Source: Truepera sp.
GTDB taxonomy: Bacteria; Deinococcota; Deinococci; Deinococcales; Trueperaceae
Direction: 5' to 3'
DNA: 64,000 nt
NCBI GenBank assembly: GCA_965218435.1
Contig: CBDCKW010000005.1
Coordinates: 128,001 to 192,000 of the forward strand
In this document: piece after piece, positions 32,988 to 60,518 of the stretch
Position numbering within the stretch: the stretch's first letter is position 1
How the letters are laid out: each line of letters begins with the position of its first letter
The notes under the pieces: model-generated
The model's database searches: none
Told to the model about the DNA's origin: nothing
What the model saw: the letters and a program-made list of their open reading frames with translations, nothing else
Made by a program: the position numbers and the translations under genes

Positions 32988-33021
32988 GTTGTGCGTTTCT
33001 CGCGCTCATTAAACGCATAAC
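32988..33021 (+). repeat. Junction motif copy 1
   Basis: GTTGTGCG-TTTCTC-GCGCTCA-TTAAA-CGCATAAC. Confidence 0.75.
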
Positions 33022-33126
33022 GCAGCTTTGACCACTGCCATGATCCGGGCACGGGTCCGCGCCCGGGCGATTGCCACGTTCCTTGCAACCACCTCGGGAA
33101 GCGTCTCCAAAGTGGGCAGTAGAAAG

Positions 33127-33786
33127 TCACCGGGGTTGGGACACGATCGACCGAAAGCGCCGGTCATCGCTCTGCATCCTCGGATCGAGGGTAGGGTCGG
33201 CATACATGGGAGGGCAGCCGTGATCGATGGCGTCGGAGCGCAGTTCGTAGTGCCAGGGTTCGTTGCTGTAGATCTGGCACAGTCCGTATTTGGCACCGTG
33301 TTCGGACAGCCACGCCGTGGCGTCGAAGTGCCCGATGTCGATTGCGTCCCCGGACACGTGAGCCGACGTACCTGCGGTGGCGACCCATCGGGCAGCTTTC
33401 TCTTCAGAGCCGTACTCGGAGACCGCCTCACGAAGAAGCTGATTCTGGTACTCCGGGGAACGCCAGCCGCTGTTGACGTAGAACGTGACGTCGGCGTCAG
33501 CGGCATCCGTCGCCGCTTCACGCAGCGCCCGGCGCAGATCGGGGTTGAGGTTGGCAACGCCGGGATACTCGTCATCAAATACGGTTACGCCGTCAGGGAC
33601 GGCACCGTCAGCCTCGGTAGGCGTGCCACCGTCGTCGCCGCGAAGGACGTCGCCGACCGAGGACGCCGATGACGATGACTGATAGACGAGGGTTCCGATG
33701 ATCGCAGCGGTGACGACGACTAGGCCGACGGCGGTGGGCTTGAGAGTCTTGCGGGACCTTGTTCGTGCTGGTTCGTTGTAGGGCAT
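33127..33786 (-). CDS. vanY: D,D-carboxypeptidase (M15B), VanY-like
   Basis: N-terminal TM; SGWRS, SAHVSGDAID, EPWH motifs. Confidence 0.85.
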   Translation of the reverse strand: MPYNEPARTRSRKTLKPTAVGLVVVTAAIIGTLVYQSSSSASSVGDVLRGDDGGTPTEADGAVPDGVTVFDDEYPGVANLNPDLRRALREAATDAADADVTFYVNSGWRSPEYQNQLLREAVSEYGSEEKAARWVATAGTSAHVSGDAIDIGHFDATAWLSEHGAKYGLCQIYSNEPWHYELRSDAIDHGCPPMYADPTLDPRMQSDDRRFRSIVSQPR

Positions 33787-33873
33787 GCCTCCAGTTAAGG
33801 TAGTGTGGTGTTATCAACGCGTATGTGGTTTTCGGTATGCCGACGATATGCGCCAACTTATAGAATTGAGAGC

Positions 33874-34566
33874 ATGCGCGTGTTGGTTGTTGAGGACGAG
33901 CCCTACATGGCGGAGGCCATCCGCGACGGTCTACGCCTGGAAGCGATCGCGACCGACATCGCCGGTAATGGCGACGTCGCTTTGGAGTTGCTTAGCATCA
34001 ACACCTACGACATTGCCGTCCTCGACCGCGATATCCCTGGCCCCTCCGGCGACGAGATCGCCAAACGCATCGTCGCCTCCGGCGGCATGCCGATCCTGAT
34101 GCTCACTGCTGCGGACCGGCTCGACGATAAAGCCTCCGGGTTCGAGCTAGGAGCTGACGACTACCTCACGAAGCCGTTCGAACTGCGAGAGCTCGTGCTC
34201 AGGCTCAGAGCACTCGACCGCAGGCGGGCGCACAGCAGGCCACCCGTGTGGGAAATCGCAGGTCTGCGGCTCGATCCGTTCCGCAGAGAGGTCTACCGCG
34301 ACGGCCGCTACGTCGCGCTGACCCGGAAGCAGTTCGCCGTGCTCGAGGTCCTCGTTACCGCCGAAGGCGGTGTCATCAGCGCCGAAGAGCTCTTGGAACG
34401 GGCATGGGACGAGAACGCCGACCCGTTCACCAACGCCGTGCGCATCACGGTCTCAGCCCTACGCAAACGACTCGGCGAACCCTGGCTGATCGCCACGGTG
34501 CCCGGCGTCGGCTACCACATTGACACCGGACCAGACACCGGCAGCAGGGGCGGCAACGATGGCTAG
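33874..34566 (+). CDS. vanR: Response regulator VanR (OmpR family, actinobacterial type)
   Basis: MRVLVVEDE, LDRDIPGPSGD, DYLTKPF, AWDENADPFTNAVRITVS; TAGAAT 7 nt upstream suggests a leaderless transcript. Confidence 0.9.
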   Translation: MRVLVVEDEPYMAEAIRDGLRLEAIATDIAGNGDVALELLSINTYDIAVLDRDIPGPSGDEIAKRIVASGGMPILMLTAADRLDDKASGFELGADDYLTKPFELRELVLRLRALDRRRAHSRPPVWEIAGLRLDPFRREVYRDGRYVALTRKQFAVLEVLVTAEGGVISAEELLERAWDENADPFTNAVRITVSALRKRLGEPWLIATVPGVGYHIDTGPDTGSRGGNDG

Positions 34567-35701
34567 AGCGCCTGGGTTGAGCGTTCGCCTCAAACTCACC
34601 CTCAGCTACGCCGGGTTCCTGATGCTCGCGGGTGCCTTGCTACTCGCGGTCGTGTGGGTGTTCCTTCTGCGTTACGTACCCAACGATGCGATCGTCTTCC
34701 CCGGTCGCCAGCTGTCCGAAAATGCGATCAGAACCCCTGGTTTCTCCCCTAGTCTCTTCTTTCCCGGTCGGTCCGATCTCATACGGGCGTTTGCTCCGAA
34801 AGCAGCCGCCGTGCTGACGTTCCTGCTGGTGTTTGGTCTCGTGGGAGGATGGGTCCTCGCCGACCGCATGCTCGCCCCGCTGGCTCGCCTTACCGACGCT
34901 ACGCGCCTGGCAGAGAGCGGATCGCTCTCCCACCGGATCCGGCTACCGGGCCGCAACGATGAGTTCCGCGAGCTCGCCGACGCCTTCGACGCCATGCTCG
35001 CACGGCTCGAGGCGCACGACGCCGAACAGCGGAGGTTCGCCGCCAACGCCTCTCACGAACTGCGCACCCCACTGGCGATCACGCAGACTCTTCTCGAGGT
35101 CGCTCGCAACGATCCCAACCACCACACCAGCGAACTTGTCGAACGCCTCCTCGCTGTCAACGCCCGAGCGATCGACCTCACCGAAGCATTGCTCCTGCTC
35201 AGCCGCTCAGACCAGCGGTCGTTCACCCGCGAGCACGTCGATCTCTCCCTCCTCGCGGAAGAAGCCACCGAAACACTCCTCCCCCTCGCGGAAAAGCGTG
35301 GCGTCACCATTCAGACCTCCGGGGAGATCAGTGCCACGAGCGGTTCACATGCTCTCTTGCTGCAGATGACCACAAACTTGCTGCACAACGCCATCGTCCA
35401 CAATCTCCCCGAACATGGCACCGTGCAGGTCACCACCGCCAGCCGCCTCGAGTCCGTCACGCTTACTGTCGAAAATACTGGCGACAAGCTCACACCACAG
35501 CTGGTCTCGATACTCACCGAACCGTTCCAGCGCGGTACCGAACGCATCCGCAGCGATCATGCGGGTGTCGGCCTGGGCCTGGCAATCGTCAAGAGCATCA
35601 CCCAAGCACACGACGGCACCCTTACCTTTGCCCCCCGTCCCGCTGGCGGACTTCGCGTCACGGTGCAGCTACCCGGCGCGCTACCGCACACCAACAGCTG
35701 A
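34559..35701 (+). CDS. vanS: Sensor histidine kinase VanS (actinobacterial type)
   Basis: GLSVRLKLTLSYAGFL, HAMP, ANASHELRTPL, NAIVHN, GVGLGL. Confidence 0.9.
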   Translation: MARAPGLSVRLKLTLSYAGFLMLAGALLLAVVWVFLLRYVPNDAIVFPGRQLSENAIRTPGFSPSLFFPGRSDLIRAFAPKAAAVLTFLLVFGLVGGWVLADRMLAPLARLTDATRLAESGSLSHRIRLPGRNDEFRELADAFDAMLARLEAHDAEQRRFAANASHELRTPLAITQTLLEVARNDPNHHTSELVERLLAVNARAIDLTEALLLLSRSDQRSFTREHVDLSLLAEEATETLLPLAEKRGVTIQTSGEISATSGSHALLLQMTTNLLHNAIVHNLPEHGTVQVTTASRLESVTLTVENTGDKLTPQLVSILTEPFQRGTERIRSDHAGVGLGLAIVKSITQAHDGTLTFAPRPAGGLRVTVQLPGALPHTNS

Positions 35702-35845
35702 CATGTAGGAGAATAGCCGCACGCCACGAGAGGAATGGCCAGGGCTAGGGGATAAGGCCGGCAGGCGCGTAAGCGTCACGGCTTGCTGATTCGCCAGGTC
35801 GTTCGACAAGGACGCTGGCGGCACTTTCCCGTTTACCTTGCTCAA

Positions 35846-36454
35846 CTATAGGATGGGAAAATCAAAGTACGTGTTTGGATAAGGTTCATCTTTCAGGGTG
35901 TAATGCCACCACTCAAAAGCGTACGACTTAAAGCCGCACCCCTCCATAATCGAACAAAGGTGGCGACGATTTTTCGCTTCAGCATGCGTGACGCCTTTTG
36001 CGCCATGATGCGAAACTAAATCCATCAGATCATAGTTACCGCCCATTAAAACAAGGTCACCGATATCTAGATGATAAAGCGTCAAATCGACTGTACTGCC
36101 CCGACTATGGCCCGATTTAGCGGCTACATATCCCTTTTCAAACATCGCGGCTCGATCAATATTCGGATAGTGCCTTCGTTTCGTCCGGCCATCCTCCGGC
36201 TGTTTCGACCAGCGCATAAAACAATCGACGGCGCGTTGAGGGCGATAACCATCCCAAAGGAGCAAGCCAAAACCAAGGGCCGCGGCATCGTCTCGAGCTC
36301 TTTCCAGGGCAGCGCACAACGCCCTCGTACCGACAATTCGGTTTACCAGATATCCGTCCACCGGTTTGCCGGTGAAGTTGTCCCAGGTGGCGTACTTGGC
36401 ATCCCAACGGATGCCGGACACCAGCTCGTCCACGAACACGAAGTCGTCGTTCAT
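35846..36454 (-). CDS. vanX: D-Ala-D-Ala dipeptidase
   Basis: WDAKYATWDNFTGKPVDGY, WDGYRP, SGHSRGSTVD, EWWHY; 202 aa. Confidence 0.97.
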   Translation of the reverse strand: MNDDFVFVDELVSGIRWDAKYATWDNFTGKPVDGYLVNRIVGTRALCAALERARDDAAALGFGLLLWDGYRPQRAVDCFMRWSKQPEDGRTKRRHYPNIDRAAMFEKGYVAAKSGHSRGSTVDLTLYHLDIGDLVLMGGNYDLMDLVSHHGAKGVTHAEAKNRRHLCSIMEGCGFKSYAFEWWHYTLKDEPYPNTYFDFPIL

Positions 36455-37491
36455 TGCTTTACCCCGTGCAGTGTCATCGACACGAGTTGATCGATCACGT
36501 CAGACAGCGGCAGTCCTGCGGCGGCCATCATCCTGGGATAGCGGCTGTACGATGTCATGCCCGGCAAGGTGTTGACCTCATTGAGTACCACCTGCCCGTC
36601 TTCCTTGAGAAACATGTCCACGCGGGCAAGTCCTTGGCAGCCTAGGGTATGGTAGATGGCCTTAGCGGTCTCTTGGACGAGCCGGCGCGATTCTTCGGAG
36701 ATGTCGGCAGGAACGATGAATGTCGAATTCTCCGAGCCGGTCTCGGGTGAGTTCTCCTGGTGGATCCTGAAAAATCCGTGCGAGAGAGCGACGCGGTCCA
36801 CCTCGCCCGCAACCAAGTTAAATCGCTCCCCTAGGATCGCGCAGCCGATCTCGCTTCCGAAAACAGCCTCCTCGATAAGGACTTTCGAGTCGTACTGTCG
36901 TGCGTTTTCCAGCGCGCTCTGCAACTTATCTTTTCCGGTGACTTTGCTGACGCCGAAAGATGATCCCGAACGGGCCGGCTTCACGAAAATGGGGTAAGGA
37001 AGCTGGTCGGGGTTAACCGTTTCGTTCCCTAAGACGACCCAAAAGTTCGGCGTGGCGATTCCCGCACTTCTAGCGACGATGTAGGCTAGGGTCTTGTCTA
37101 TGCACAGGGCCGAGCTCTGGACGTCGCAGCCGACATAAGGGATACCCGAGAGCTCTAGCAGACCCTGGATTGCACCGTCCTCGCCAAGCTTGCCATGGAG
37201 TACGGGGAAAACCAGGTCGAGGCGGACTGTTTCGTACTCTCCCTGCTCCAGAACCAGCAGGCCGTGCACGCGCCTGTCCGGTGACACTACAGCCGTCCGG
37301 TAGCAGCCGCTCTCCCAACCCGCGTCGGGGCCATCACAGAGATTCCACGCACCGCCCGCCGTAATACCGATCCAGTACGGTTCGTACTTCTCAGTGTCGA
37401 GGTTCTTCGCGACCTCTTGTGCAGACTTGACGGAGACGGGATGTTCTTCGGATGTTCCCCCGAATATGATTCCGATCTTCAACCTATCCAT
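36451..37491 (-). CDS. vanA: D-Ala-D-lactate ligase (VanA/VanO-like)
   Basis: EEHPVSVKSA, LHGKLGEDG, KPARSGSSFG, omega-loop GFFRIHQE, SYSRYPRMM. Confidence 0.93.
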   Translation of the reverse strand: MDRLKIGIIFGGTSEEHPVSVKSAQEVAKNLDTEKYEPYWIGITAGGAWNLCDGPDAGWESGCYRTAVVSPDRRVHGLLVLEQGEYETVRLDLVFPVLHGKLGEDGAIQGLLELSGIPYVGCDVQSSALCIDKTLAYIVARSAGIATPNFWVVLGNETVNPDQLPYPIFVKPARSGSSFGVSKVTGKDKLQSALENARQYDSKVLIEEAVFGSEIGCAILGERFNLVAGEVDRVALSHGFFRIHQENSPETGSENSTFIVPADISEESRRLVQETAKAIYHTLGCQGLARVDMFLKEDGQVVLNEVNTLPGMTSYSRYPRMMAAAGLPLSDVIDQLVSMTLHGVKQ

Positions 37492-38515
37492 GCCGCTTCC
37501 TGCTTTCAAAGTTCAAGCAGTTGATAAGACTGTTTTCAACGGAGTCGTTCAGGGCGTGATCGGTGTAATAAGCGGTGTGCGGAGTTATAAGCACATTCGG
37601 CAGGCTTTGTAGTCGCAACATCACCTTGTTTTCGATGGGCTTGTCTCGGCAATCGGCGTAGAAGATTCCTTCCTCTCCTTCAAGGACATCCAATGCCGCA
37701 CCGCCCAACCTGCCGCTTTCCAACGCTGGAATAAGGGCCTCGGTATCAAGAAGTGAACCGCGTCCAGTATTAATAATGAATGCACCAGCTTTCATCTGCG
37801 CGATACGTTGGCGATTTAGGAGATGGTGCGTGGCCACGGTAAGAGGGGTGTGGAGCGTGACAATATCGCTCTGCCATAGCAGTTCTTTAAGCGGAACGTA
37901 ATCGGCAGAGGTCTTAGGACGATGGTCATGAGCTAAGATTTGGCAGCCAAAGCCCCGCAGTCTATTTATGACCGCTGCGCCAATGCTTCCTGTTCCAATG
38001 ACCCCAATAGTCAGATCGCGCAATTCTTTCCCGCGTACGTCATTCAATCTGTAATCATGGATATCTGTACGGCAGATAGTGGATTTTGCCTGTCGCACCA
38101 CCATCAGCATCAGCATTAAGGTGTAATCAGCCACGCTATCGGGCGAACAGGCGACATTCTCAACGGATATGCCGACGCTCTCCGCGTATTTCACATCGAT
38201 ATGGTTATATCCAACGCTTCTCGTGGAGATATACATTACACCGGCTCGGCTAAGCGCAAGAAGCGTGGAATTTGTGATTTGGGTTTTATGACTGACGCTG
38301 ATGCATCGGTTTCCAAATGCCAGTTCAATGGTGGCTTCAGATACTGCTGCCTCGGTGATGGTTAGCAGTACGCCAAAGCGAGGTGCTATCTCTCGAAGCA
38401 AGGTGGCCTCGTCTGGCCCGCATCCGTAGATTGTGATTCCCATTCTTGGGACGGCCGCAGCCACCAGCGATTGGGTGCAGCGGGCCGCTGTTTGGACTGG
38501 TTCGCTGTGGGTCAT
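37484..38515 (-). CDS. vanH: D-lactate dehydrogenase
   Basis: ITIYGCGPDEA, STRSVGYNHID, SPDSVADYT, NTGRG, PHTAYYTDHAL. Confidence 0.95.
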   Translation of the reverse strand: MTHSEPVQTAARCTQSLVAAAVPRMGITIYGCGPDEATLLREIAPRFGVLLTITEAAVSEATIELAFGNRCISVSHKTQITNSTLLALSRAGVMYISTRSVGYNHIDVKYAESVGISVENVACSPDSVADYTLMLMLMVVRQAKSTICRTDIHDYRLNDVRGKELRDLTIGVIGTGSIGAAVINRLRGFGCQILAHDHRPKTSADYVPLKELLWQSDIVTLHTPLTVATHHLLNRQRIAQMKAGAFIINTGRGSLLDTEALIPALESGRLGGAALDVLEGEEGIFYADCRDKPIENKVMLRLQSLPNVLITPHTAYYTDHALNDSVENSLINCLNFESRKRHG

Positions 38516-38756: not shown

Positions 38757-39030
38757 GGCATTGCCACGTTAAGTTTGTCTACCGCCCAGGTTCATGCTAG
38801 GGTTGGCGACTCGTGCGTACCGACCTCTACAAAGTCACCGCTTCCCGACCCAGATCATCAGCCGTCGCATGTGGCTTTATCATCGCTTCGACATGTCGTT
38901 TCGGGCGGTAGAAGAGCTGCTGTTCGAACGGGGTATCGTGCTGAGCTACGAGACCGTGAGGCGCTAGTGCCTCGAGTTCGGCGAGTACGACCGTCGCTTA
39001 AAGCGTCGCAGGGCACAAGCGGCCTTCCGG
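38757..39030 (+). mobile_element. IS6-family remnant
   Basis: Terminal-repeat-like GGCATTGCCACGTTAAGTT, then HRFPTQIIS..WLYHRF..EELLFERGIVLSYETVRR*C; end approximate. Confidence 0.75.
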
Positions 39031-39126
39031 CCCGTTCGCAGCACAAGGGACATGTTCTATGGTCCTGGCGGTCTTTACGCGAGATGACCATCTTTGGCGC
39101 TATACTGTGAAGTGTCAGGAGCACCT

Positions 39127-39393
39127 ATGGACGCAAGCCTTGCCAATCTGCCTAAGCTCACCGGACTTCCCCCAAGTTTTCCTCAGAACGGTGCGATCAA
39201 CATCGTTCTCGAGCAAGGTGTGCCTACCTTTCGGGCCTCGCCCGCGGTTGTCAGCCGCGTCGAGCAGCTTCTTGAAAAGGAGCAGGAGGGCGGGTTGAGC
39301 AGGGCGAAAGCGGATGAACTTTCTCGTTACGAAGAGGTGGACGACTACCTCAGCCACCTGAACCGGGTTGTCCGGAACTTGCAGAGCGCTTAA
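39127..39393 (+). CDS. Small hypothetical protein (putative antitoxin partner of the HNH gene)
   Basis: FRASPAVVSRVEQLLEKE..GLS..ADEL..Y...DDYLS pattern, directly upstream of an HNH gene. Confidence 0.65.
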   Translation: MDASLANLPKLTGLPPSFPQNGAINIVLEQGVPTFRASPAVVSRVEQLLEKEQEGGLSRAKADELSRYEEVDDYLSHLNRVVRNLQSA

Positions 39394-39399
39394 GGCGGG

Positions 39400-39852
39400 G
39401 TGGCGCGCCCCAAAGTACCTGATGTTTCAAAGGCCGAGGTCAGGACACGAGCAGCGTCTCTGTATGAATACTGCCACACGGACGAAACCCGGCAGTATGT
39501 GCCCTTTACCTTCGATCACGTCGTGCCTGTAAGTCTGGGTGGTAACACCACAGAGGAAAATCTGGCCCTTGCTTGCTTTCATTGCAATCGCCGTAAGGGC
39601 AATGCTGTACGCGCCGCTGATCCCACCACTGGGCAGGACGTACCGCTCTTCAACCCTAGAATGGACGTCTGGCAAGAACACTTTGTCTGGTCGGCCGACG
39701 GGCAGGAGATCGTTGCGCTGACCGTTACAGGGTGAGCGACTCTTCATGCTCTTGATCTCAACCGCGAGCGCGTCAAACGCATCCGCGAAGCTGACATAGC
39801 GGTCGGGCGGCACCCGCCCGTCGGCGATCCGGTTCGGACAGACGAAGGCTGA
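39400..39852 (+). pseudogene. HNH endonuclease with an in-frame TGA
   Basis: YEYCH, DHVVP, NLALACFHCNRRK, LFNPR..WQEHF; TGA at 39733 then ATLHALDLN. Confidence 0.8.
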
Positions 39853-39863
39853 CTTTCTGCATT

Positions 39864-39888
39864 TGAACGCGCTCATTAAACGCACAAC
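39864..39888 (+). repeat. Junction motif copy 2
   Basis: TGAAC-GCGCTCA-TTAAA-CGCACAAC; 12 bp after the HNH stop and supplies the SDR stop codon. Confidence 0.75.
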
Positions 39889-40814
39889 GCTGTCGAATAC
39901 CCCAGAGGAGGTTGTTCTCTTCGCCGACCGTCTGCCCATCTTAGGCTCACATCCCACAAACGCTCCTGCGCCTCAACATCCTCGGCAAGGGGGTTCACGG
40001 CTTCGCGCTTGCAAAGTGGGCCATAGTACGCGCCCGTAATGGTTCCTGCCTCTGGCGCGGAGGCCAAGTAGACCGCCGGGGCCGCCCCCTGTTGCAGCGT
40101 GACGCGGTTGAACAGGCGGCGCACAGGCGCAGCCAGCCGGTACACAGGCCCGTTGTTGGTCGAAAAGCCGGTGACGACCGTGCCGGGATGCACCGCATTG
40201 GCGACGACGCCCGTACCCGCGAGCCTTCTTGCTAAGGCGAACGCGTGGAGCACGTTCGCCAGCTTGCTCTGGCTGTAAACGCCCCACCCCAGACCGGTGC
40301 TACCCCTGCCCTCGGTGGCCCAGTTGCTCCTGAACTCAAGGTCCTCCCAGTGCATGCGACCCTCGTGGTGGGCGCTCGAGGCTTGGTTGATGATGCGGGC
40401 CTCGCCGTGCTCGGCGGCGGTGCGCTTAAGCAGCTCGAGCAGGTCGTGGGTAAGCAGGAAGTAGCTGAGGTGGTTGAGCGCCCAGGTCATCTCGATCCCG
40501 TCTGCGCTCTCCTTATGCTCCGTAAACCAGGCCCCGGCATTGTTCATTAGCACGTCGAGTCGGCAGAGGTCGCGCTTAAGTGCCTCCGTCAACCTACGTA
40601 CCTCTGTCTGCACGGACAAGTCGGCGGCGTAGAAGCGCACGTTCGGGTTGCCCGTCTCCCAGCGAAGGCGGGCAGCAGTCGCCGCGCACTTTACGTCATT
40701 GCGGCTGACGAGGACGAGGTCGCCACCTTGCTGAGCAAGGTTTCTGGCGATGGCCTCGCCGAGGCCGTTCGTTGCGCCGGTGACGAGGACGGTTTTTCCT
40801 TCCATTGCCTTCAT
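39876..40814 (-). CDS. Short-chain dehydrogenase/reductase (retinol dehydrogenase-like)
   Basis: TGATNGLG, NNAG, YSQSK, VHPG. Confidence 0.9.
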   Translation of the reverse strand: MKAMEGKTVLVTGATNGLGEAIARNLAQQGGDLVLVSRNDVKCAATAARLRWETGNPNVRFYAADLSVQTEVRRLTEALKRDLCRLDVLMNNAGAWFTEHKESADGIEMTWALNHLSYFLLTHDLLELLKRTAAEHGEARIINQASSAHHEGRMHWEDLEFRSNWATEGRGSTGLGWGVYSQSKLANVLHAFALARRLAGTGVVANAVHPGTVVTGFSTNNGPVYRLAAPVRRLFNRVTLQQGAAPAVYLASAPEAGTITGAYYGPLCKREAVNPLAEDVEAQERLWDVSLRWADGRRREQPPLGYSTALCV

Positions 40815-40948
40815 CTCAGGTGTCCTTTCTGCGTGCTGGCTCGACCCGCTGAGCGGCTCGGCCTCGATGCCTCTGGTCCCCTCCCACCATCGTCGAGGAG
40901 GTCCCCAGAGTTCCCTCATCAGACAAACGCTGAGTTAACTTGGAAGGG

Positions 40949-43301: not shown

Positions 43302-43436
43302 CTCATTCTCCGTAGATAGGTGACGGCGTTCGCCGCCTGAGCTTTGATCGTCCTGCTAGACTTTCGCTTGCCTTCCCCTCCCTTTTATAAGTGAGTTATC
43401 ACTAACATACGAAGAAATAAAAAAGCTACTAGGGAT

Positions 43437-43982
43437 TCAGAAGAATTTATGGTCTATGTGAATGAGCTCCGGGAAATCAATGGCAGTCGCAATCGTCATC
43501 AGCATTCCCTGGGCAAAGAAGGCGCTCACCTTTACGTCCGGGGCGTTAGAAGCACTTTTAACGAACGCGTAAAGCTCCGCGTAACGCTTCCGTACCGTCG
43601 TTCGCACCTCATCGTCGGCGGAGGCAGCGAAACTGTGAAGCAACACTAGCAGCTCGCTGCGGCGCTCCAACAATCCGGCGTACGCCGTCCCCATTGCCTC
43701 AAGCGGACACCCCGTATTCTCTACCAGTGCGCTTTGAAAAGTGTCTTGCACCCGGTCACAGACGCGCAAGGCGCTAACCAAGAAAAGCTCCTTCTTCGTT
43801 CCAAATAGCTTGAAGATGTAGGGTTGCGAGATACCTACCTGCTTTGCGATCCTTTCTGTCGAGCTGCCGTGAAGGCCGTGCTCCGCGAACTCTTCGATGG
43901 CCGCTTCGATGATCGCCTCCCGGCGCTCGTCGGCCCCGATACGTTGTGGAGTGGTCCTTCTAGACACAAGGTTAGTGTACAC
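43437..43982 (-). CDS. TetR-family transcriptional regulator
   Basis: RREAIIEAAIEEFA..STERIAKQVGISQPYIFKLFGTKKELF. Confidence 0.92.
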   Translation of the reverse strand: MYTNLVSRRTTPQRIGADERREAIIEAAIEEFAEHGLHGSSTERIAKQVGISQPYIFKLFGTKKELFLVSALRVCDRVQDTFQSALVENTGCPLEAMGTAYAGLLERRSELLVLLHSFAASADDEVRTTVRKRYAELYAFVKSASNAPDVKVSAFFAQGMLMTIATAIDFPELIHIDHKFF

Positions 43983-48460: not shown

Positions 48461-48604
48461 GCTAGCCTGAAGTCAAGGGCTTCTCGGCCGTTAACCTAGA
48501 GGTGCTTGAAGCGATGTACAAAGCACGTTATTGCCCGTTCGCATAACATCAGGCGGAATTGAACCGGCACCTGCGAACCCATCCTAAACGTTATGGTGAG
48601 GTTT

Positions 48605-49501: not shown

Positions 49502-49634
49502 CGTTCACCTCACGCGAGAATATCGTGCGCCGACCGCCCCTCTCGCGGATTGGTGCCCGGCTCGGTAAACCTCGCCAGCCCGCCGCACCGAACCCAGTGG
49601 AGAACCGTTGGGCGCTTTTGGGAGAGTCACAAGC

Positions 49635-51446: not shown

Positions 51447-53206
51447 GCCAGCGCCTCTTCGAGTCCTGTCCGCAGCAAGCCAGCGAAGTGCGATGAAGGG
51501 TTAGCAGCCAGCGCCTTGCGATTGCCGAACTCGATACAGCGCCCCCCGTCCAAGATCATGATCTCGTCCACCCGCTGCACCGTCGCCAGTCGGTGGGCGA
51601 TGATGATGGCGGTCCGGCCTTCCAGCAGGCGGTCGATGGCACGCCCGAGTTGCTGCTCTGTGGCAGGGTCAAGCCGGGACGAAGCCTCGTCGAGGATCAC
51701 CAAGCCGGGGTCTTTCAGGAACACCCGCACGAACGCCAAAAGTTGCGCCTGCCCCGCCGAGAGGTCGCTCCCACCGGGGGCGAGGCGGCTGTCGAGTCCC
51801 TCGGGCAACGACCGGTACCAGGGGCCGAGCCCGACTTCGTGCAATACCGCGAGCATGCGCTCGTCATAGACGTTGGGGTCAAAAAGCGAAAGGTTTTCGC
51901 GCACAGTCGCGTGGAAGAGCTGGATCTCCTGCGTCACCATCCCGACACCTTTGTGGACGGCCCCGGCTCGCAACTCGGGCAGCGGAACGCCGCCAAGGTG
52001 GATCGTGCCCCCGGTCGGATCGTAAAGCCTCAGCAGCAGCCGGGTGAGCGTCGTCTTGCCGCTACCCGTGCGTCCCAGCAGCCCCAGCTTCGCGCCCGGG
52101 CGGAGCATGAACGACACATCCTGGAGCACCCACTCGGGTTCCTCCTGGTCTTCAGCCACTGGGTAGCGGAAGGATACGCTCCGGAACGAGACTGCGGGCG
52201 CATCTTCAGTCAGCCCGAGCGTCCCGGCGTCCTCGAGCCGCGCCCTTGTGCCCAGCAGATCGGAGATGCGGAGGATCGATGCGCCCGCCTGCTGCAAGTC
52301 CTGGACCTGCCGCCCGATGACCTCGATGGGGCCGGTCAGGAGCTGGGTGTAACGGAATATCAGGAACACTGTGCCGATGGTGATCTCACCCCGCTGAAAG
52401 AGGATCGCCCCGCCGCCCAGGGCGATGACCGACCCTAGCGAGAACAGCACCGCCGAAAGGCTAAAGGTGCTCACGCCGATCAGGCTCGCCTTAAGTTGCG
52501 TGCGCAGGACCTTCCGGGCCTGCTCGAAAAAGCGGCGCATGACGTAGGCGGTTGCCCCGCTCGAGCGCACGTCTTCCGTGCCGGCCAGGCGCTCCTCCAA
52601 GAAACCAAACAGCTCCGCGTCGGCTTCTCTCGAGGCGCGGAAGTGGGGCACAGCCACGTCCCTCGACACGTAGACAACCACAAAGGTCAGGACTGTGAAC
52701 AGTACTAAAGCTGCGCCCACCCTCCAATCTATCCAGGCGAGGGCGACGAGCACGCCGAGCATCAGCAGGCCGTTGCCGAGCAGGTCCACGGCGAAGCGGG
52801 AAAAGAAGTTCTTGAGCCGCCCCACGTCCCCGTCGATCCGCTCGATGAGCGCCCCGGGCGTCTGGCCGTTATGGAAGGTCATATCGAGGCCGAGGACGTG
52901 CTCGGTCAGGTCCGCCCGGAGTTCGTTGGTCGCCCTGAGTCCTAAGTTCTCGGCGACGTATGCTTCGACTACAGACAGCAGCTGGACGCCGATGGTGAGC
53001 ACCAGAAACAGGACCGCCAGACGAACGAGCACGGCGTACGAACCACCGCCGGTAGCGGCGTTGATGAACTGCGAAAGGAGGTATGGGCTTACGAGCTGTA
53101 ATCCCACTCCGGCGAGCAGGAAGGCGAGCAGCAGGAGCGCTTGACGCCAGAATGGACCCACGTAGCCCACCAGGACGGAGCGGTACTGACCCAGGCCTAC
53201 CCCCAT
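51443..53206 (-). CDS. ABC exporter subunit (permease/ATPase), heterodimer partner
   Basis: [29 protein letters not shown]-coupled to the previous gene. Confidence 0.92.
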
Positions 53207-53527
53207 AAGGGTTCCCACACGCACACAGGCGTAGATAAAGAAAGCACCTCGAACATTATGACAGGAATTCGGTTACAACGGCCTAGGTCAGGTCCCTCGA
53301 TTAGCGAGCGCAGCCTCTAAAGTCAAGCTTAGGGCTTTCCGGTAGAGGGCTAGCTCCTGTCGACTTTGGTCTCGGAGTAAACCAGCACCACATGGATGGT
53401 CGTACCTGCGAAGTGTTGAAGTTGAATGAACCCACAAACCTTCAGGAGCCGACCGCCCTAGTGGTGCACCGTCTCCCACGGCCTTAATGGGCGGCCCAAG
53501 CGCCAGGCGGAAGGGTCGCGGCAGCGC

Positions 53528-54568
53528 CTACTCGTCCCAACCGGTATGGAGCCGAGGCTGCTCCCAGCTTCCGTCCGGCTCCCAGCGGATGAACGTCCCG
53601 TCGAACGGCCAGGCGCGGGATTCGATTAGGGAGAGGACCCGGGCGCGAGCACTCTCCACATGGTCGGCAGTTTCTGCCGAGATGACCCCCCACCTGATCC
53701 CTTCTCGGTATTCCGTCTCGTCCTTCCACGCCCAGGTCAAATCCGGCGCGACGTCCAGGTCGAGCTCGAGGTCAAACGTGTCGAAGCCTAGCGCAGAGCG
53801 CACGAAGGGCAGTTGGAAGTTGACGTACCAGCCGACGAACGCGCCCGTCTCGTGGTGCCAGCACACCCAAGTAGCAAAGTAGTTCCCGGGCCGAATGAGC
53901 TTCAGGACGCGCAGGCGACTCCAAACGGTGTCACCCATTGACCAAGCGCCGCTGTGCTGTTCTTCCCACCTCGAGGTACGCGGCGCGTTCCCCGCCATCA
54001 CCTGCAAGAACAGGGTGCTGATCTTGCACTGCGCGCCCGGGGTGAGCAGGAGCGCCGTCAGCTCGGGCGTGTCCTGGACGACCGTGACGGGCCTAGCACA
54101 GACGACTTTTTCGTTCAGCACCTCGTGGAACGTGACGGCCTCACCCGGACTCCAGTAGTGGCTCACTCCGACCTCACCCACCGTTCTTAGCACGTCGAGC
54201 ACCCTCGACACCTGGCGATCGTTCGCCACGCTGTCTAACGGCAGCCAGGCCACCTCCTGCAACATCCGCACGTCCGCCGCCAGATGCGCCTCTTCCGGGT
54301 CATGCCCCAGCAAGGCGGTCTGGCCCGCGTCCGCCTCGAGCAGGTGGCAAAGGCTTGCGCCGCCTCCGTACAGCTCCTCGAACAAGAAGCGCACGACCCG
54401 GGCGTCCAGCCCGGTCTCCTCGCGGACCTCACGCACGGCCGCTTCTTCGGGCGTTTCGCCCGGCTCGACGCCGCCGGGCAGCGTCCAGTAGGTGCGCCCG
54501 CCGTGCTCATGGCGCACCATCAGGATGTCGTTTCCGAGAATGATGGCCGCGCAAGCTCTTGGTCGCAC
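53528..54568 (-). CDS. NUDIX hydrolase fused in frame to a DUF402-like domain
   Basis: Nudix box GGVEPGETPEEAAVREVREETGL; C-part WYVNFQLP..DTFDLELDL..WKDETE. Confidence 0.8.
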   Translation of the reverse strand: MRPRACAAIILGNDILMVRHEHGGRTYWTLPGGVEPGETPEEAAVREVREETGLDARVVRFLFEELYGGGASLCHLLEADAGQTALLGHDPEEAHLAADVRMLQEVAWLPLDSVANDRQVSRVLDVLRTVGEVGVSHYWSPGEAVTFHEVLNEKVVCARPVTVVQDTPELTALLLTPGAQCKISTLFLQVMAGNAPRTSRWEEQHSGAWSMGDTVWSRLRVLKLIRPGNYFATWVCWHHETGAFVGWYVNFQLPFVRSALGFDTFDLELDLDVAPDLTWAWKDETEYREGIRWGVISAETADHVESARARVLSLIESRAWPFDGTFIRWEPDGSWEQPRLHTGWDE

Positions 54569-54667
54569 CCTCCGGCTCCTTCTCAAGGCTGGGATTGAAA
54601 TGGCGCTTGACTACAGTAGGATAAGCCCTAACGCGGCCCCCAGACTTGGCGGGCGAGGAGGCCACAC

Positions 54668-55495
54668 GTGAGGATCGCGACCTACAACCTCTGGAACTCC
54701 CGCGTCCGCTGGCCGGAGCGGTTGGACGCGGCGGTCGAAGAGCTCGTGCGCCTCGATGCCGACGTCGTTGCCCTACAGGAGGTGGCGGCGCGGGTGGAGG
54801 AGCACGACGGGCGCGACGCTGCTGCATTACTCGCGGAGCGGTGCGGTTACGGCCACGTCGTGACCCGGCTCTACCCAAACGACCCGGACGAGGGAGTGGC
54901 GTTCCTGAGCAAGCAGCCGCTACGCGCCGTCGAGGCCGGGTGGGACACCGGCCTGTCGGCGCTGGCGAACTGCGGGCTCCGGGCGCGCGTGAGCGTCGGC
55001 GGCACTAAGGTCGTGCTCACGAACGTCCACCTCGACTGGGAGAACATCGCCGCCAGGGAGGCGCAGACTGCGCAAGTGATGGCGTGGATCGAGATGCGCT
55101 CGGAGGCGGGGTGTTACGAGGTGCTGTGCGGCGACTTCAACGCCACGCCGGACTCGAGCGTCTACCGGTTCCTGATGGGTCAGCAGACGCTGCAGGGTAG
55201 GGGACCCGGCCCCGGCTGGCATGACCTGGCGCGTTCTCACGCCGAGAGGAATGGCAGATCGCCCGAGCCCACGCTCGACTTCTGGCATAACCCGCGCTGG
55301 CGGGACGCACCGACGCTCGAGGTGCCGATGCGTGTTGACTGGCTGCTCCTGCGGGACCTCTTTAACACGGCCCTGCCCTACCCCAGCGTGCCGGACGCTG
55401 GCATTTTCGGCACCCACCCGACACCTCAGATGCAGGTGGTCCCTAGGGACCACTACGGCGTTTACGCGAACCTCTATTTCGGTAGACGGGACTGA
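54668..55495 (+). CDS. Endonuclease/exonuclease/phosphatase (EEP) family protein
   Basis: ATYNLW, VALQEV, NVHL, GDFN, VDW, DHYGV. Confidence 0.9.
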   Translation: MRIATYNLWNSRVRWPERLDAAVEELVRLDADVVALQEVAARVEEHDGRDAAALLAERCGYGHVVTRLYPNDPDEGVAFLSKQPLRAVEAGWDTGLSALANCGLRARVSVGGTKVVLTNVHLDWENIAAREAQTAQVMAWIEMRSEAGCYEVLCGDFNATPDSSVYRFLMGQQTLQGRGPGPGWHDLARSHAERNGRSPEPTLDFWHNPRWRDAPTLEVPMRVDWLLLRDLFNTALPYPSVPDAGIFGTHPTPQMQVVPRDHYGVYANLYFGRRD

Positions 55496-55566
55496 GGGTG
55501 GCATGGATGTCCGGAAGGTTGCGGGTTGACAATGATTGATGATTGGCGTAGGTCGTCGCGTTACGC

Positions 55567-55586
55567 GCGCTCATTTCACGCATAAC
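55567..55586 (+). repeat. Junction motif copy 5
   Basis: GCGCTCA-TTTCA-CGCATAAC. Confidence 0.72.
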
Positions 55587-55761
55587 GCCGGCGGTAACCG
55601 GCGAGCATAGAATGCGACGTCAGAATGGCGACGACAATGGCACCTAAACCCGTGACAACCACCTAAGCCCTCTTGTACCAGGGCGTTGTGACAGGCACGG
55701 ACTTGGCGGCATTTGAGGTCCTACGCCGTCTGGACATTTGCTAGCTAGTGTGGCTGATGCG

Positions 55762-55862
55762 GCCTAACCCGGGAGTTAGCCTGCGAGAACTCGCCAAGAA
55801 GAAGCCGGAGCAGCTGCAGAACGCAACAGCGAGGGCTCGTCGGGTGCAACTCCGAGTTATGC
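55762..55862 (-). other. Integron attC-like recombination site
   Basis: Minus strand: R'' GCATAAC-5 bp-L'' GTTGCACC-CGAC...-L' GGCTAAC-6 bp-R' GTTAGGC; imperfect inverted repeat of 101 bp, 70 bp after the APH stop. Confidence 0.7.
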
Positions 55863-55931
55863 AGCCGGCGGCGCAGGCAACGACCCCTACCACATGGCAC
55901 CCACCTGAGCGAAGGTCTCACGACGATGCGG

Positions 55932-56930
55932 CTACCAGGCGAGCCCATCCAGGTGGTTGTGGCCTGAAAGCACGCGAGCAATGCGCTCCCGCGCCGCTTC
56001 ACGCTCGTCCGCTACGGGGTGATGGGTATAGAGCGCGAGCTCACACTGCATGTCATAGAAGAGCAACCGTTCCCGCAGATGCTCGCGCTCGAACAGTTCC
56101 GGATACGCGCCACGCAGCCATCCAGGGACATCAGTGAGGGTGGTCTCGTCGAGCCCTCGTCCGCCGGGTACGGGAGGGTACTCACTCGCCTTCGCACACC
56201 AGCGGAGGATGATATCGAGTTCGACATCCGCTGGCTGGGCCAACGCCTCGGCGAAATCGAGGAGACCGGTAACGCGTCCTTCGTCAACGATCACGTTGGA
56301 TCCATGTACGTCACCGTGGACAAGGACGGGTTCGTCGGCAGCGAACAACGCCAGCCGCTCCCGGACCCAGTCGGCGACGTCGGCGAGTAGGCGCGAGTCA
56401 CACCCGGGCCGTCGCCGCGCAGCCTCGACCTGACCGAGCACCGCATTCACCACAGGTGGGTGGTACGCAGCCCGCGGCTTCCCGGCGAGCGCATCGGCCA
56501 GCCACGGCGGCAGCAGGTCCGCCGAGACAGGAACCCGGTGCAGCGCACGCAACGCAACGCCGAGGCTTTCGATCATTGCTTTGCGCGTGGGCACGTCTGC
56601 CCCCGGCCACGCGTCGTGCAGGGTTCGCCCGGGCACGCGTTCGGAGACGCACCACGGGCCGTCGGGGCCGTCGCCGTGACCGAGGTGTCGGGCGTGTGGA
56701 ACCTCGCTGCCGGCGAGCAGGTTGACGACTGTGGCCTCGTGGCGAAACGAGTCGCGAAACTGTCCGTTGCTCAGCCGTACGACGTATTCGTCGCCGACCC
56801 ACACACGGCTAACCCAGCCGGCCTTTGGAAGAAATCGCCCGGTTCCCGGTAGCCCAGCGGCCGCCAGCGTCCTCAGCAGGGCTGGGTCACTGGCAGGCTC
56901 GTCAACAAACGCTGCTGAAAGCTCGCCCAC
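55932..56930 (-). CDS. Aminoglycoside phosphotransferase-family kinase
   Basis: HGDVHGSNV Brenner motif, LLDF. Confidence 0.85.
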   Translation of the reverse strand: MGELSAAFVDEPASDPALLRTLAAAGLPGTGRFLPKAGWVSRVWVGDEYVVRLSNGQFRDSFRHEATVVNLLAGSEVPHARHLGHGDGPDGPWCVSERVPGRTLHDAWPGADVPTRKAMIESLGVALRALHRVPVSADLLPPWLADALAGKPRAAYHPPVVNAVLGQVEAARRRPGCDSRLLADVADWVRERLALFAADEPVLVHGDVHGSNVIVDEGRVTGLLDFAEALAQPADVELDIILRWCAKASEYPPVPGGRGLDETTLTDVPGWLRGAYPELFEREHLRERLLFYDMQCELALYTHHPVADEREAARERIARVLSGHNHLDGLAW

Positions 56931-57395
56931 GCCTCACCTCTAGTAAGACTCCATATAGGATGATTATGCCGCTCTTTGTCCTTTTGCGTGTGAACGGCCC
57001 ATTTGCAGCATTGGTGGTTGCCTTTAATACGCTCGAATACCGCATAATATCGAGAAAACATGGTGAGATATCGTTGCAGCAGTTCAGTAACGATGTCTCA
57101 CCCAACGAAGATCGAAGTAGAAAGCCGCCTAAAACAGCGGAATATAGTGCTCGAGTTGTGAGCTATGGGCCACAAAAAGCTACAAGCTTATCTATGCAGC
57201 GGTATCCATAGTTAGTTTGTTCCATCTATTGCAAGGAAACGGGCTTGGACAGGCAAAAATCTACCGAATTGACGCTGCGGCTAGCGGGGCAAATTTTCGT
57301 GACCTTGATTGTCCGAACTATATGCTCAAAAACACCGCGAGGCAAGTGATGGCAAATAAAGAACCTACTTCGTAAAGTAAGTGCGAGGTGAACCC

Positions 57396-58370
57396 ATGAC
57401 CGAGCCTGACGCTTCCGCCCCTCTTCAACCCGTCACCAGCTTTGACAGCCCTACCCTCGAGTTTGACTTTCCCGGGCTCGAGATCGGCTGCGCTGAGTAC
57501 GAGGAGGGACCCACCGGCTGCACCGTTTTCCACTTCCCGCAGTCTGCAAGCATAGCGACCGACGTACGCGGCGGCCTGCCGGGCGTGTTCATGGCAGGTG
57601 ACGGTCCTACCGAGGCCATTTGCTTTGCGGGCGGCTCGCTCTACGGCCTTGAGGCGTGTACCGGGGTGACCGCCGAATGGCTAGCTCGCCGTCAGGCATC
57701 GGGCAAGTCGGCGAACATTTTTGATGACATCGCGGTCGTGCGGGGTGCCATCATCTTCGACTTTGCGCACCGCCAGAACTTTATCTATCCCGATCACGCC
57801 TTAGGACGTAGTGCCCTCCAGGTAGCTCGACCCGGCCGCTTTCCGTTAGGACAATGCGGGGCAGGACGCTCGGCTGATGTCGGCAATGGCCTCGACTGGC
57901 AAGGAGAAGAACCAGGGGGTCAAGGGGGTGCGGTACGCGACTTCGGCGAGGTCAAGCTAGCGGTATTCACCGTCGTTAACGCCATAGGTGCCGTTGTAAA
58001 CCGTAACGGCGAGGTGGCGCGGGGTCATCTCGACCGTCAGACCGGAGAGCGCAGCCACCTGAAAGACGACCTCGAGGCGACCCTGGGCGCGTCCGATTCG
58101 GGTCGGCCCACCCGAGCAACGACCCTGACGCTGGTCGTGACCAACGTCAAGCTGACGCCGACTGACCTCACACAGCTTGGGCGACAAGTCCATAGCTCGA
58201 TGGCCCGGGCGATTCAGCCGTTTCATACCAGCTTCGATGGCGATGTGCTGTTCACCGCCACAACTGGAACGCACGAGATGCATGAACTAAGCCCGGCGCA
58301 CCTCGGGGTCCTAGCCTCCGAGCTGGCTTGGGACGCCGTACTGAGGGCTGTCGGCGTCAACCCTCAGTAA
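57396..58370 (+). CDS. P1/S58 (DmpA-like) peptidase
   Basis: GPTGCTV, DVRGG, GGSLYGL, VNAIG, ATTL, HTSFDGD. Confidence 0.88.
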   Translation: MTEPDASAPLQPVTSFDSPTLEFDFPGLEIGCAEYEEGPTGCTVFHFPQSASIATDVRGGLPGVFMAGDGPTEAICFAGGSLYGLEACTGVTAEWLARRQASGKSANIFDDIAVVRGAIIFDFAHRQNFIYPDHALGRSALQVARPGRFPLGQCGAGRSADVGNGLDWQGEEPGGQGGAVRDFGEVKLAVFTVVNAIGAVVNRNGEVARGHLDRQTGERSHLKDDLEATLGASDSGRPTRATTLTLVVTNVKLTPTDLTQLGRQVHSSMARAIQPFHTSFDGDVLFTATTGTHEMHELSPAHLGVLASELAWDAVLRAVGVNPQ

Positions 58371-58417
58371 CCTCAGTTTTAACGCATCGTTACGGCCTAA
58401 AGGCTGCTCAAATGGTT

Positions 58418-58445
58418 GCCCTGAACGCGCTCAACCACCGCATAA
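58418..58445 (+). repeat. Junction motif copy 6
   Basis: GCCCTGAAC-GCGCTCA-ACCAC-CGCATAA. Confidence 0.75.
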
Positions 58446-58502
58446 ACGGTAACGACTCCTGGGCGTTATCGTTCAAGGTTTCACCAAGGGCTACGATGAA
58501 CC

Positions 58503-59552
58503 ATGCCTGCCACTCTGAACCGTAAACGCCTCGAGCTCGCATTTGACACTCTCGGCGCGGACGTCCGCGCGGGCCAAGCCTCAGCCACCGTCTTCGGCGT
58601 CGCCTCTGCTCACGAGACCGTGCGCCTAGAAGCTTTCGGGCAGACCTCCGGAACGCCCCTTACAACCGACCATATCTTCTTGCTGGCGTCGATCACCAAG
58701 CCCATCGTCGCAACCGCCGTGATGCAGCTCGTCGCCGACGGTCGTCTGCTGCTTAACGAACCCCTGGTCAAGCATCTACCCGAACTAGCAGCCCCCGGCA
58801 AACCGCAGCTCACTGCGTGGCACCTGCTCACGCACACCTCGGGTATCAGGGAGATCGACTGGCTTACAACGTTGCGGCAGCTTCCCGAGCGGGTGGTGAG
58901 TTTTGAGGTCGCCTGCGCTGAGATGCCGCTGTTTACACCGGGCTCGAGCTTTTCGTACAGCACCCTGACGTTCTACCTGCTCGCCGAACTCATCACCCGC
59001 GTTTCGGGTTTGCCATTTGCGGCGTACCTGGAGGTGCACATCTTTAGACCGCTTGGGATGAAAGACACGTCGTTCGACCCGCGTGGGCAACGCTCCCGGA
59101 TGGTCGAGGTCGAAAGGATCACCGGGCCAGGTGGCCCCTCTGCTGAGAGAGCGACGGACGCGTTTATCTCGTTCGCGATGCCGGGGGCGGGGTTATGGAG
59201 CACGGCTGAGGACCTCGTCCACTTTGGTCAGGCGCTCTTACGCCGTGACCCCGAGCTGTTACCGCCGACCTACGTCGAACTGATGAGCCGTGACCAAACA
59301 CACGGGCTGCTCGCGCCGGGGACCGTGTCAAGGCCCCAGCATCAGACGCTCGGCTGGCGCAAAGGTAAAGTTGATGGCTTCGACGTGGTGCCTGCCTCGT
59401 CCTCAGTGATCGAGCACGATGGGGCCACGGGCGGGCAGCTCTGGCTCGACCCGGAACACGACCTCGTGTTCGTTTACCTTACCAACCGTTTCGGGGCTGA
59501 CTCGAGCGTGCGGCAGCGGGCGCTTCAGGTGGTCTATAGTGCTTTGACTTAG
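58503..59552 (+). CDS. Serine hydrolase, beta-lactamase/class C-like fold
   Basis: SITK (SxxK), LLTHTSG, FSYS, HDGATG. Confidence 0.88.
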   Translation: MPATLNRKRLELAFDTLGADVRAGQASATVFGVASAHETVRLEAFGQTSGTPLTTDHIFLLASITKPIVATAVMQLVADGRLLLNEPLVKHLPELAAPGKPQLTAWHLLTHTSGIREIDWLTTLRQLPERVVSFEVACAEMPLFTPGSSFSYSTLTFYLLAELITRVSGLPFAAYLEVHIFRPLGMKDTSFDPRGQRSRMVEVERITGPGGPSAERATDAFISFAMPGAGLWSTAEDLVHFGQALLRRDPELLPPTYVELMSRDQTHGLLAPGTVSRPQHQTLGWRKGKVDGFDVVPASSSVIEHDGATGGQLWLDPEHDLVFVYLTNRFGADSSVRQRALQVVYSALT

Positions 59553-59594
59553 TAGGGGCGGTCTTGAAAGCAGCGTATTCGCAGGCGAAAGGAC

Positions 59595-60419
59595 ATGATG
59601 TCTCACCGATCTCTCGGAACTCTACCAGTCGAATATATCCGGGACGTCGTTTATGGCCGAGCCGACGAGACTGAGTTGCTTCTCGATATCGTCCAACCCT
59701 TAACAGTCAACGGTCCACGTCCTGCTATTGTCCAGCTTCACGGGGGCGGCTGGATCAAGGGCGAGAAAGAACCCGCTAGTAATCACACCCTCGCACAACA
59801 CGGCTTTTTTACCGTCAGCATCAACTACCGGCTTAGCCCAGCTCACATTTTCCCGGCTCACATCCACGACTGCAAGGCGGCGGTGCGCTGGTTACGGGCC
59901 AACGCCGAGCGCTACAAGATTGATCCCAACCGTATCGGTGTCTGGGGCGGCTCTGCGGGGGGTCATCTTGCGGCCCTGCTAGGCACCTCTTATGGCGTTA
60001 AGGAACTCGAGGGAACGAGCGGTTCGCCCGGTTTTTCCAGCCGTGTTCAGGCCGTAGTCTCGGTCTGTGGCGCGAGCGACCTAAGCCAACCACCTGACGG
60101 CTACTGGCAAAACGATCCAGCCTCTGAACCGTCACTACTCTTTGGCGGCTTGGTACGTGACAAGGCAGAACTGGTGAGGCTAGCCAACCCCATCACGCAT
60201 ATCCGCCCTGATACGCCGCCGATTCTACTGATTCATGGTGACGAGGACGAAGTCGCGCCATTTTTACACTCACAGCTTCTCGACGTGGCTTTGCGAGAAG
60301 CTGGTGCGGACGTCACGCTGGTTCGGGCTAAGGGGAAAGCTCACGGCTTCTCCGAACCCTGGCAACAGCGAATTGACACGCTCCGCTTAGAATTCTTCAA
60401 GAAGCATTTGCAAAAGTAG
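59595..60419 (+). CDS. Alpha/beta hydrolase (esterase/lipase)
   Basis: HGGGW, GGSAGG, HGDED, AHGF. Confidence 0.9.
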   Translation: MMSHRSLGTLPVEYIRDVVYGRADETELLLDIVQPLTVNGPRPAIVQLHGGGWIKGEKEPASNHTLAQHGFFTVSINYRLSPAHIFPAHIHDCKAAVRWLRANAERYKIDPNRIGVWGGSAGGHLAALLGTSYGVKELEGTSGSPGFSSRVQAVVSVCGASDLSQPPDGYWQNDPASEPSLLFGGLVRDKAELVRLANPITHIRPDTPPILLIHGDEDEVAPFLHSQLLDVALREAGADVTLVRAKGKAHGFSEPWQQRIDTLRLEFFKKHLQK

Positions 60420-60450
60420 ACGTGCTCAGTCAGTAGCAGGCTGTACATCT

Positions 60451-60518
60451 TTATGCAATACTGCGGCCCAATCCACGCACAAAACCCTCGGTTAAAGAAG
60501 CGCTCAAGTGCCGCATAA
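60451..60518 (+). repeat. Junction motif copies 7 and 8 (tandem)
   Basis: TTATGCA-N6-CGGCCCA-N5-CGCACAA (60451-60482) and GCGCTCA-AGTGC-CGCATAA (60500-60518). Confidence 0.7.

Follow-up and report, generated by a model that had tools for sequence, protein, structure and literature searches.

Two-core site arrays in Truepera sp. and R3, a candidate Xer-like cassette recombinase

What kind of system assembles unrelated genes behind one repeated motif? We analysed a 64,000-nt window of Truepera sp. (genome G000, contig C5:128001-192000), in which the motif GCGCTCA-N5-CGCAYAA recurs at the junctions between gene blocks. An earlier note on this DNA had read these junctions as the product of repeated site-specific insertion by a non-IntI tyrosine recombinase and had connected them with the recombinase genes of the window. 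We find that the motif belongs to a larger site, and these sites are almost certainly recombination sites. Judging from comparative sequence analysis, they likely form a two-core cassette array worked by a dedicated Xer-like tyrosine recombinase, R3, for which recombination is inferred. The reading as site-specific recombination at cargo junctions by a non-IntI enzyme is supported; among the parts of it that are not supported is the link to the recombinases of the window.

Site anatomy and the two site classes

The motif lies exactly where it had been reported at 33002, 39869, 46449, 55567, 58427 and 60500. The copy given at 48442 is real with one mismatch, and an additional copy at 57029 had been overlooked. 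Allowing up to two mismatches, we counted 11 matches in the window against 1.5 ± 1.2 expected, and 0 of 100 shuffles reached 11. The whole site is a 32-bp imperfect palindrome consisting of a 13-bp arm, a 6-bp core and another 13-bp arm, of which the motif is a part. Performing a matrix scan, we found 14 such sites from 32989 to 60518, all on the + strand, in keeping with the single orientation noticed before. The first 33 kb are indeed free of sites, the top matrix score there being 9.5 bits (reversed control, 7.3).

The sites fall into two co-oriented classes, A with the core GCGCTC and B with the core CGGCCC, and the window holds nine A and five B sites. Among 110 distinct sites from G000, G002, G004 and G005, the exact A core occurs in 59 and the exact B core in 35. 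The earlier note had rightly placed the motif at cargo junctions but had missed class B and the B-A tandems. Its fuller form of the motif is present at 32989, 46436 and 60451, as described, but the core at 60451 is CGGCCC, so that this copy belongs to the second class. The proposed likeness of CGCATAA to the XerC arm of dif is not supported, as this heptamer is the outer end of the arm and does not adjoin the core.

A matrix scan of the whole genome, a check that the earlier note had proposed, showed that the motif also occurs outside the window, at an uneven density between contigs. Above 19 bits, C5 (685 kb) carries 36 sites (5.3 per 100 kb), C9 (3.9 Mb) carries 13 (0.33 per 100 kb) and C7 carries 6; 13 of the 18 exact motif copies in the genome are on C5. 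Contig C2 repeats window positions 47592-64000 at 99.8% and continues along C5; we took it for an assembly duplicate and did not count it. C5 also contains a large segmental duplication (97-100%) between about 16-44 kb and 258-286 kb, in which four sites are present twice.

In G000 and three stretches of G005, 50 of 58 neighbours within 15 kb were co-oriented. The transitions between neighbouring sites were A-B (23), A-A (11), short B-A (7), long B-A (6) and B-B (3). The cargo lies in the long A-B and A-A segments. The short B-A segments are empty, with 2-6 bp between the sites, and the six long ones reduce to four different modules, all of which have a toxin-antitoxin-like pair (HNH; PIN/DUF2281; Phd/PIN-like and Xre/MbcA-like, the last two assigned by eye from translations). 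A second site was found 34-38 bp upstream of 18 of 65 A sites and downstream of none; two of the 18 are one head-to-head pair. At L071:3281-3347, a perfectly palindromic site with the core GAGCTC stands head-to-head with an A site and resembles two joined A right halves.

We found no statistical dependence between left and right arms (p 0.26-0.44), which are no more complementary than shuffled pairs. This independence argues against a single-strand hairpin as the substrate. An Rfam search across window positions 30000-64000 gave no match.

Exchange of module neighbours at site centres

To compare the surroundings of the sites, every site was split into outward half-sites, and all 564 halves were compared against each other. 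Among 62 homologous pairs of half-sites, 54 had unrelated partners (53 after removal of one chance match in a conserved gene), and the remaining eight, which were conserved, are one segmental duplication on C5. Identity was about 0.8-0.9 in the flank on the half-site's own side and equal to background on the other side. Most of these pairs come from genomes with a palindromic core, described below. Six are A/B pairs, and all six, a small number, retain both side and core class. Module boundaries in relatives coincide with sites, and module neighbours change at the site centre, which bears out the correspondence that the earlier note had suggested.

The chromosomal module at C9:3253475 is common to G000 and a palindromic-core site of G008. 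The match to the window begins at 55567 in environmental contigs of runs X1 and X10 and at 60500 in a further X1 contig; both positions are the first base of an A core. Across 19 pairs with ≥93% flank identity, the outer six arm bases track the module, with 4 mismatches in 114 bases. Three chromosomal A-B islands are insertions relative to relatives, in which the island flanks are adjacent, with 60-400 bp of unalignable DNA between the sites and the limits of homology. At two places matching chromosomal islands, G005 has a degenerate A site followed by different DNA. In viral contigs we found 12 single site matches, about chance level by our estimate.

The candidate recombinase R3 and rival explanations

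A scan of all tyrosine recombinases led to R3, a 296-amino-acid Xer-like protein that is intact at C5:584982-585872 of G000, about 400 kb from the window array, within a B-(toxin-antitoxin)-R3-A module. A second copy in G000 is frameshifted and lies beside another A site. In 8 of the 11 R3 copies, an A-type site of the same class as the array sites is located 61-66 bp upstream of the start, and 10 of the 11 have a second site beyond the other end of R3. Having sites on both sides, R3 is itself a cassette. A hairpin, CCTCCG...CGGAGG, covers the R3 Shine-Dalgarno sequence in 10 of 11 copies (L092:2389-2440 and other R3 loci), which suggests that R3 may be translationally repressed. About 70 bp past the R3-side A site, L076:4037-5229 (G000 C5:586037-587229) contains a transposase-like gene in two overlapping frames. 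IS1202-family insertion sequences target pdif sites.

R3 scores below the cut-offs of the models for XerC (201.8; cut-off 335), XerD (195.3; cut-off 329.6), IntI (TIGR02249, 92.6; cut-off 265) and NF040815. The two recombinases of the window, R1 (46.6) and R2 (33.2), also fall below the TIGR02249 cut-off. The enzyme is not IntI, as had been claimed. In 29 R3 sequences, R144, K168, K171, H243, R246 and H269 are invariant and Y278 is nearly invariant. With this R-K-H-R-H-Y set and no arm-binding domain, R3 fits a simple tyrosine recombinase. Its predicted structure (pLDDT 84.9) has a XerA-like fold, XerA being the best fold match. Simple tyrosine recombinases such as Cre, Flp and Xer bind two arms and require matching cores.

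The distribution of R3 is patchy, with 7 carriers among 128 Trueperaceae genomes and none among 235 genomes of four other families of the same order. All seven carriers have sites. The A-type pattern was present in 12 of the 128 family genomes (backwards control, 0), namely the seven R3 carriers, four genomes from the same four genera and one with a single match; the B pattern was present in 5. The co-occurrence of motif and recombinase that the earlier note had proposed to check is not borne out for R1. In the tree, genomes of a second R3 subclade have a palindromic core, GCGCGC, in 131 of 149 sites; these sites come from 781 kb of chosen stretches (control, 1), and the modules there have a median length of 2.1 kb. 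On the broadest reading, raised tentatively below, a lineage in which the A core turned palindromic would have gained inversion.

The nearest named relatives of R3 outside the family are in Bacillota (44-60% identity), and the Trueperaceae R3 proteins group in a single clade with a support of 99/99, next to clades of Bacillota. Close orthologs (profile E <1e-95) are present in 9 of 201 sampled genomes of the class of G144, the Bacilli, where R3-positive genomes account for the two top counts of our first pattern (18 and 8) and for one of the three genomes with a count of 4. A refined matrix found 161 sites in 391 kb of 23 Bacilli stretches (reversed control, 2), these being stretches selected for R3 or pattern matches and also used to train that matrix. 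The layout is the same 13+6+13, with A-like cores GCCCCC, GCACCC and GCGCCC, B-like cores CTGCCC and TGGCCC, and B-A tandems spaced 46 bp. A site was found in 15 of 18 R3-bearing stretches, and in two cases, G469 and a Sporosarcina plasmid, R3 stands between one B site and one A site. One Bacilli array packs 47 sites into 40 kb, with 35 modules of median 630 bp, and all 22 modules with a single open reading frame (ORF) run in the same direction. A first regular expression for Bacillus-type sites gave 1 match in 14 loci, and of the 19 genomes from G146's family, one matched the Trueperaceae-style pattern. In Ferroacidibacillus (Bacillota), two sites (L187:2373 and 7879) differ very little from the Trueperaceae B site, which hints at modules moving between phyla.

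We propose that each site would serve as a double-stranded target of 13+6+13 that resembles loxP or dif in its build, and that R3 alone would bind both arms and exchange strands in or near the core. Because the exchange would need matching cores, A would pair with A and B with B only. One crossover between co-oriented like sites would excise or integrate a run of modules as a circle, and two crossovers, one A x A and one B x B, would swap one A-to-B cargo block for another. The B-to-A segments are either empty or hold toxin-antitoxin pairs and R3. R3 would travel as a cassette and act in trans, and the toxin-antitoxin linkers would penalise module loss. Binding and cutting by R3, the lack of cross-reaction between A and B, and the circular intermediates are parts of this scheme that we infer from the comparisons above.

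Several observations weigh against this proposal. Site-bearing G002, G005, G057 and G058 show no R3, and three of them carry R2. The genomes are related, so that the co-occurrence counts are not independent. No clear upstream A site was seen for 3 of 11 R3 copies. Of the nine R3-positive Bacilli genomes, three gave no match to the first pattern, and 3 of 18 R3-bearing Bacilli stretches had no site. Among the joints listed (15 of 44; four runs, from contigs, which drop rare variants), none was at a site. In the 19 high-identity pairs, the inner seven arm bases differ beyond what the flanks predict (24 of 133 against 3.4), and in two pairs the far arm is common too. The outer arm follows the module but the inner seven bases vary, which makes the exchange core-centred and not perfectly sharp; conversion or branch migration may have blurred it.

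Could a recombinase of the window do the work instead? R1, a 463-amino-acid protein with a helix-turn-helix and a tyrosine recombinase domain (24086-25477, + strand), is unlinked to the sites. Its 79% ortholog is found in G001, which has one stray motif match only, and G005, rich in sites, has no close ortholog (best match 52%). R1 was ruled out as the array enzyme since its distribution does not track the sites. R2, a plasmid-type tyrosine recombinase (31046-32834, + strand), is the neighbour of the array; its window copy is split by an insertion sequence at about 31454-32391, and an intact copy lies on contig C6. It was our favoured enzyme at first. An A site stands behind an R2 gene end three times in G000, and R2 occurs in 4 of 128 genomes, all with sites and three of them without R3. 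We demoted it after the metagenome scan, in which 15 of 15 C-terminally complete R2 loci had no site within 220 bp downstream and any site at all was present in 3 of 25. The three site-linked copies, moreover, belong to a single lineage, their flanks being 83-87% identical. In G058, the 20 kb around R2 are free of sites, and R2 was not found in G054, G055, G056, G008 and G059, which include the largest arrays. In the R2-free genomes with palindromic cores, 16 of 262 half-sites are preceded by a degenerate second site, whose best-kept core is CGGGCC (control, 0), so the tandem design is independent of R2. We consider it unlikely that the R2 family is the array enzyme or contributes to exchange at sites of the A/B type, and the two recombinases of the window are probably not the array enzyme.

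Around these genes we noticed a 559-bp inverted duplication (99.5%) with a PIN gene (25590-26146 and 30481-31039), which brackets a region with two insertion-sequence remnants between R1 and R2. Elsewhere on the contig, C5:368003-371386 encodes two divergent tyrosine recombinases, 77-82% identical. An R2 fragment and an A site lie immediately downstream of this pair, of which one ortholog is present in G005.

The sites might also be pdif-like and used by a chromosomal housekeeping recombinase, with R3 a mere passenger. Arrays are present in genomes without R3, the 6-bp spacer is dif-like, and a conserved chromosomal recombinase is encoded near the GC-skew peak of C9. However, G003 and G004 also have this gene, with few sites or none, sites are absent from 116 of the 128 family genomes, and the site stands at a fixed distance from R3. 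No arm-matching site scored near the chromosomal recombinase or the skew peak, and a search for a dif-like chromosomal site near the terminus scored none. We regard this explanation as very improbable. Still less credible are two alternatives that the earlier note had listed among the findings that would overturn its own reading: a transcription-factor operator, or one end of an insertion sequence or miniature inverted-repeat transposable element. Palindromic arms and the position of a few sites upstream of genes would fit, but the sites at 32989 and 39856 are between convergent gene ends and an operator has no need of two invariant central hexamers. A and B are co-oriented rather than inverted, the interiors are unrelated and share no common transposase, and homology in most pairs breaks at the site centre rather than at the outer edge. 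These alternatives are largely refuted.

Relation to known systems and cargo of the window array

The design preferred here, R3 acting on two core classes, has an artificial counterpart. Engineered cassette exchange uses heterospecific lox or FRT sites with 13-bp arms and a core that sets the partner, two non-matching cores flanking the cassette. The arrays differ in being natural, with a 6-bp core, degenerate arms and an Xer-like enzyme rather than Cre or Flp. By the defining tests, the system is neither an integron nor pdif, yet it works like both.

In integrons, too, a tyrosine recombinase shuffles unrelated accessory genes that lie in long arrays with one orientation (PMC4889954, PMC8138268), a likeness also seen in the Bacilli array with its 630-bp median module. 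R3, in contrast, scores far below the IntI cut-off and does not count as an integrase with the IntI-specific insertion. Here the arms are independent with no single-strand hairpin, there is apparently no unique attI (the site upstream of R3 is of the array class), and the window cargo is multi-gene and of mixed orientation. The integron attC hairpin was rejected as a substrate: attC-like flanks occurred in 9 of 66 cases against 29 of 517 controls, and the folding z was -0.9 to -1.9. By eye, attC-like sequences at C5:440307, C5:409420 and L029:1488-1557 abut the outer end of an A arm at the G/TT position. Capture of integron cassettes at the arm end is a weak lead from this likeness, the enrichment being weak and the folding unremarkable.

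With pdif of Acinetobacter plasmids (PMC13141974), the arrays share accessory modules between short sites with 6-bp spacers, as well as toxin-antitoxin and empty modules. There, XerCD recombination needs like spacers, and a single module can be replaced by two crossovers through a cointegrate (PMC13141974). Crossover at the 6-bp spacer between like spacers is indicated here too, informative A/B pairs being few. The differences are that pdif uses the host XerC and XerD, whereas the present sites are linked to one probably dedicated recombinase that is itself a cassette, and that pdif sites alternate in inverted order as C and D modules, whereas the neighbours counted above are mostly co-oriented (PMC13141974). 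The pdif site is of 28 bp with a XerC and a XerD arm like those of the chromosomal dif, in contrast to 32 bp with two fixed cores, and the arrays here are also chromosomal. Tn6022 encodes a XerC-like protein beside its own hybrid dif-like site, which diversifies a cargo region, but each element has a single site and depends on the XerD of the host (PMC11014353). The present genomes have tens of sites each, in two classes and with near-symmetric arms.

A two-core Xer-type cassette system is apparently undescribed. In a literature search that covered few subscription papers, we found no description of such sites or arrays. We raise tentatively, as a possibility on which we are close to evenly divided, that this is a third class of bacterial gene cassettes common to Bacilli and Trueperaceae: a natural form of cassette exchange with a self-carried recombinase, two orthogonal addresses, empty B-A tandems as docking or capture devices, and multi-gene blocks, a whole van cluster among them, taken from ordinary DNA and passed between phyla. 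Cury et al. found no complete integrons in Firmicutes and regard the reason as unknown (PMC4889954). The arrays would do the integron's job in Bacilli and Deinococcota without the attC hairpins and IntI by which integrons are detected. The small recombinase with two natural orthogonal sites could serve as a genome-engineering tool.

In the window, the first A site (32989-33020, 39.1 bits) lies between two convergent gene ends. The A-to-B module behind it carries vanY, vanR/vanS, vanX, the D-Ala-D-Lac ligase gene and vanH (33127-38515) by Pfam and NCBIfam models, which upheld the earlier cargo labels throughout. VanX, the D-Ala-D-Lac ligase and vanH_gen exceed the model cut-offs, the closest models being VanO-type, and the block is a complete vancomycin-resistance cluster. 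With a full glycopeptide-resistance cluster as a cassette, the system may matter for the movement of resistance genes in the environment. A partly degenerate B site with the core CGGCCC (39015-39046, 15.1 bits) and a B-A linker remnant follow. The next B-to-A module holds a small ORF and an HNH nuclease gene, toxin-antitoxin-like (39094-39735, + strand), of which a 71% homolog is carried in an R3 cassette of G056. It ends at the A site at 39856-39887.

By domain models, short-chain dehydrogenase/reductase (SDR), alpha/beta hydrolase, FAD-binding protein and TetR genes come next (39876-43982, - strand). The SDR stop codon falls inside the right arm of the A site at 39856-39887, so that the last SDR codons are junction-derived. 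A weak A site (44142-44173, 14.9 bits) precedes an ABC exporter (44529-46295, - strand), and an A site with both arms intact (46436-46467, 37.2 bits) precedes genes for phosphoenolpyruvate (PEP) mutase and Ada (46493-48387, - strand). The PEP mutase-Ada block has a 72% chromosomal paralog without sites, and homology stops just before the B arm, a limit that would fit capture from ordinary DNA.

The B-A tandem at 48394-48460 consists of a weak B site (48394-48425) and an A site (48429-48460). It is followed by an unknown ORF, an ABC pair, NUDIX/DUF402 and endonuclease/exonuclease/phosphatase genes (48812-55495), the A site at 55554-55585 with its core from 55567, and an APH-family phosphotransferase gene (55932-56930, - strand). 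The second tandem, at 56982-57047, pairs B (56982-57013) with A (57016-57047, core ACGCTC), and a peptidase S58 gene follows it (57381-58370, + strand). The third, at 58380-58445, pairs B (58380-58411, core CGGCCT) with A (58414-58445), in front of a beta-lactamase-fold hydrolase and a BD-FAE esterase (58503-60419, + strand). The last, at 60451-60518, pairs B (60451-60482) with A (60487-60518), whose core begins at 60500. In the site-free part of the window, positions 19368-23012 contain Multiubiquitin, Prok-E2_E, ThiF and HTH/IrrE-like peptidase genes, a bacterial ubiquitination-like operon.

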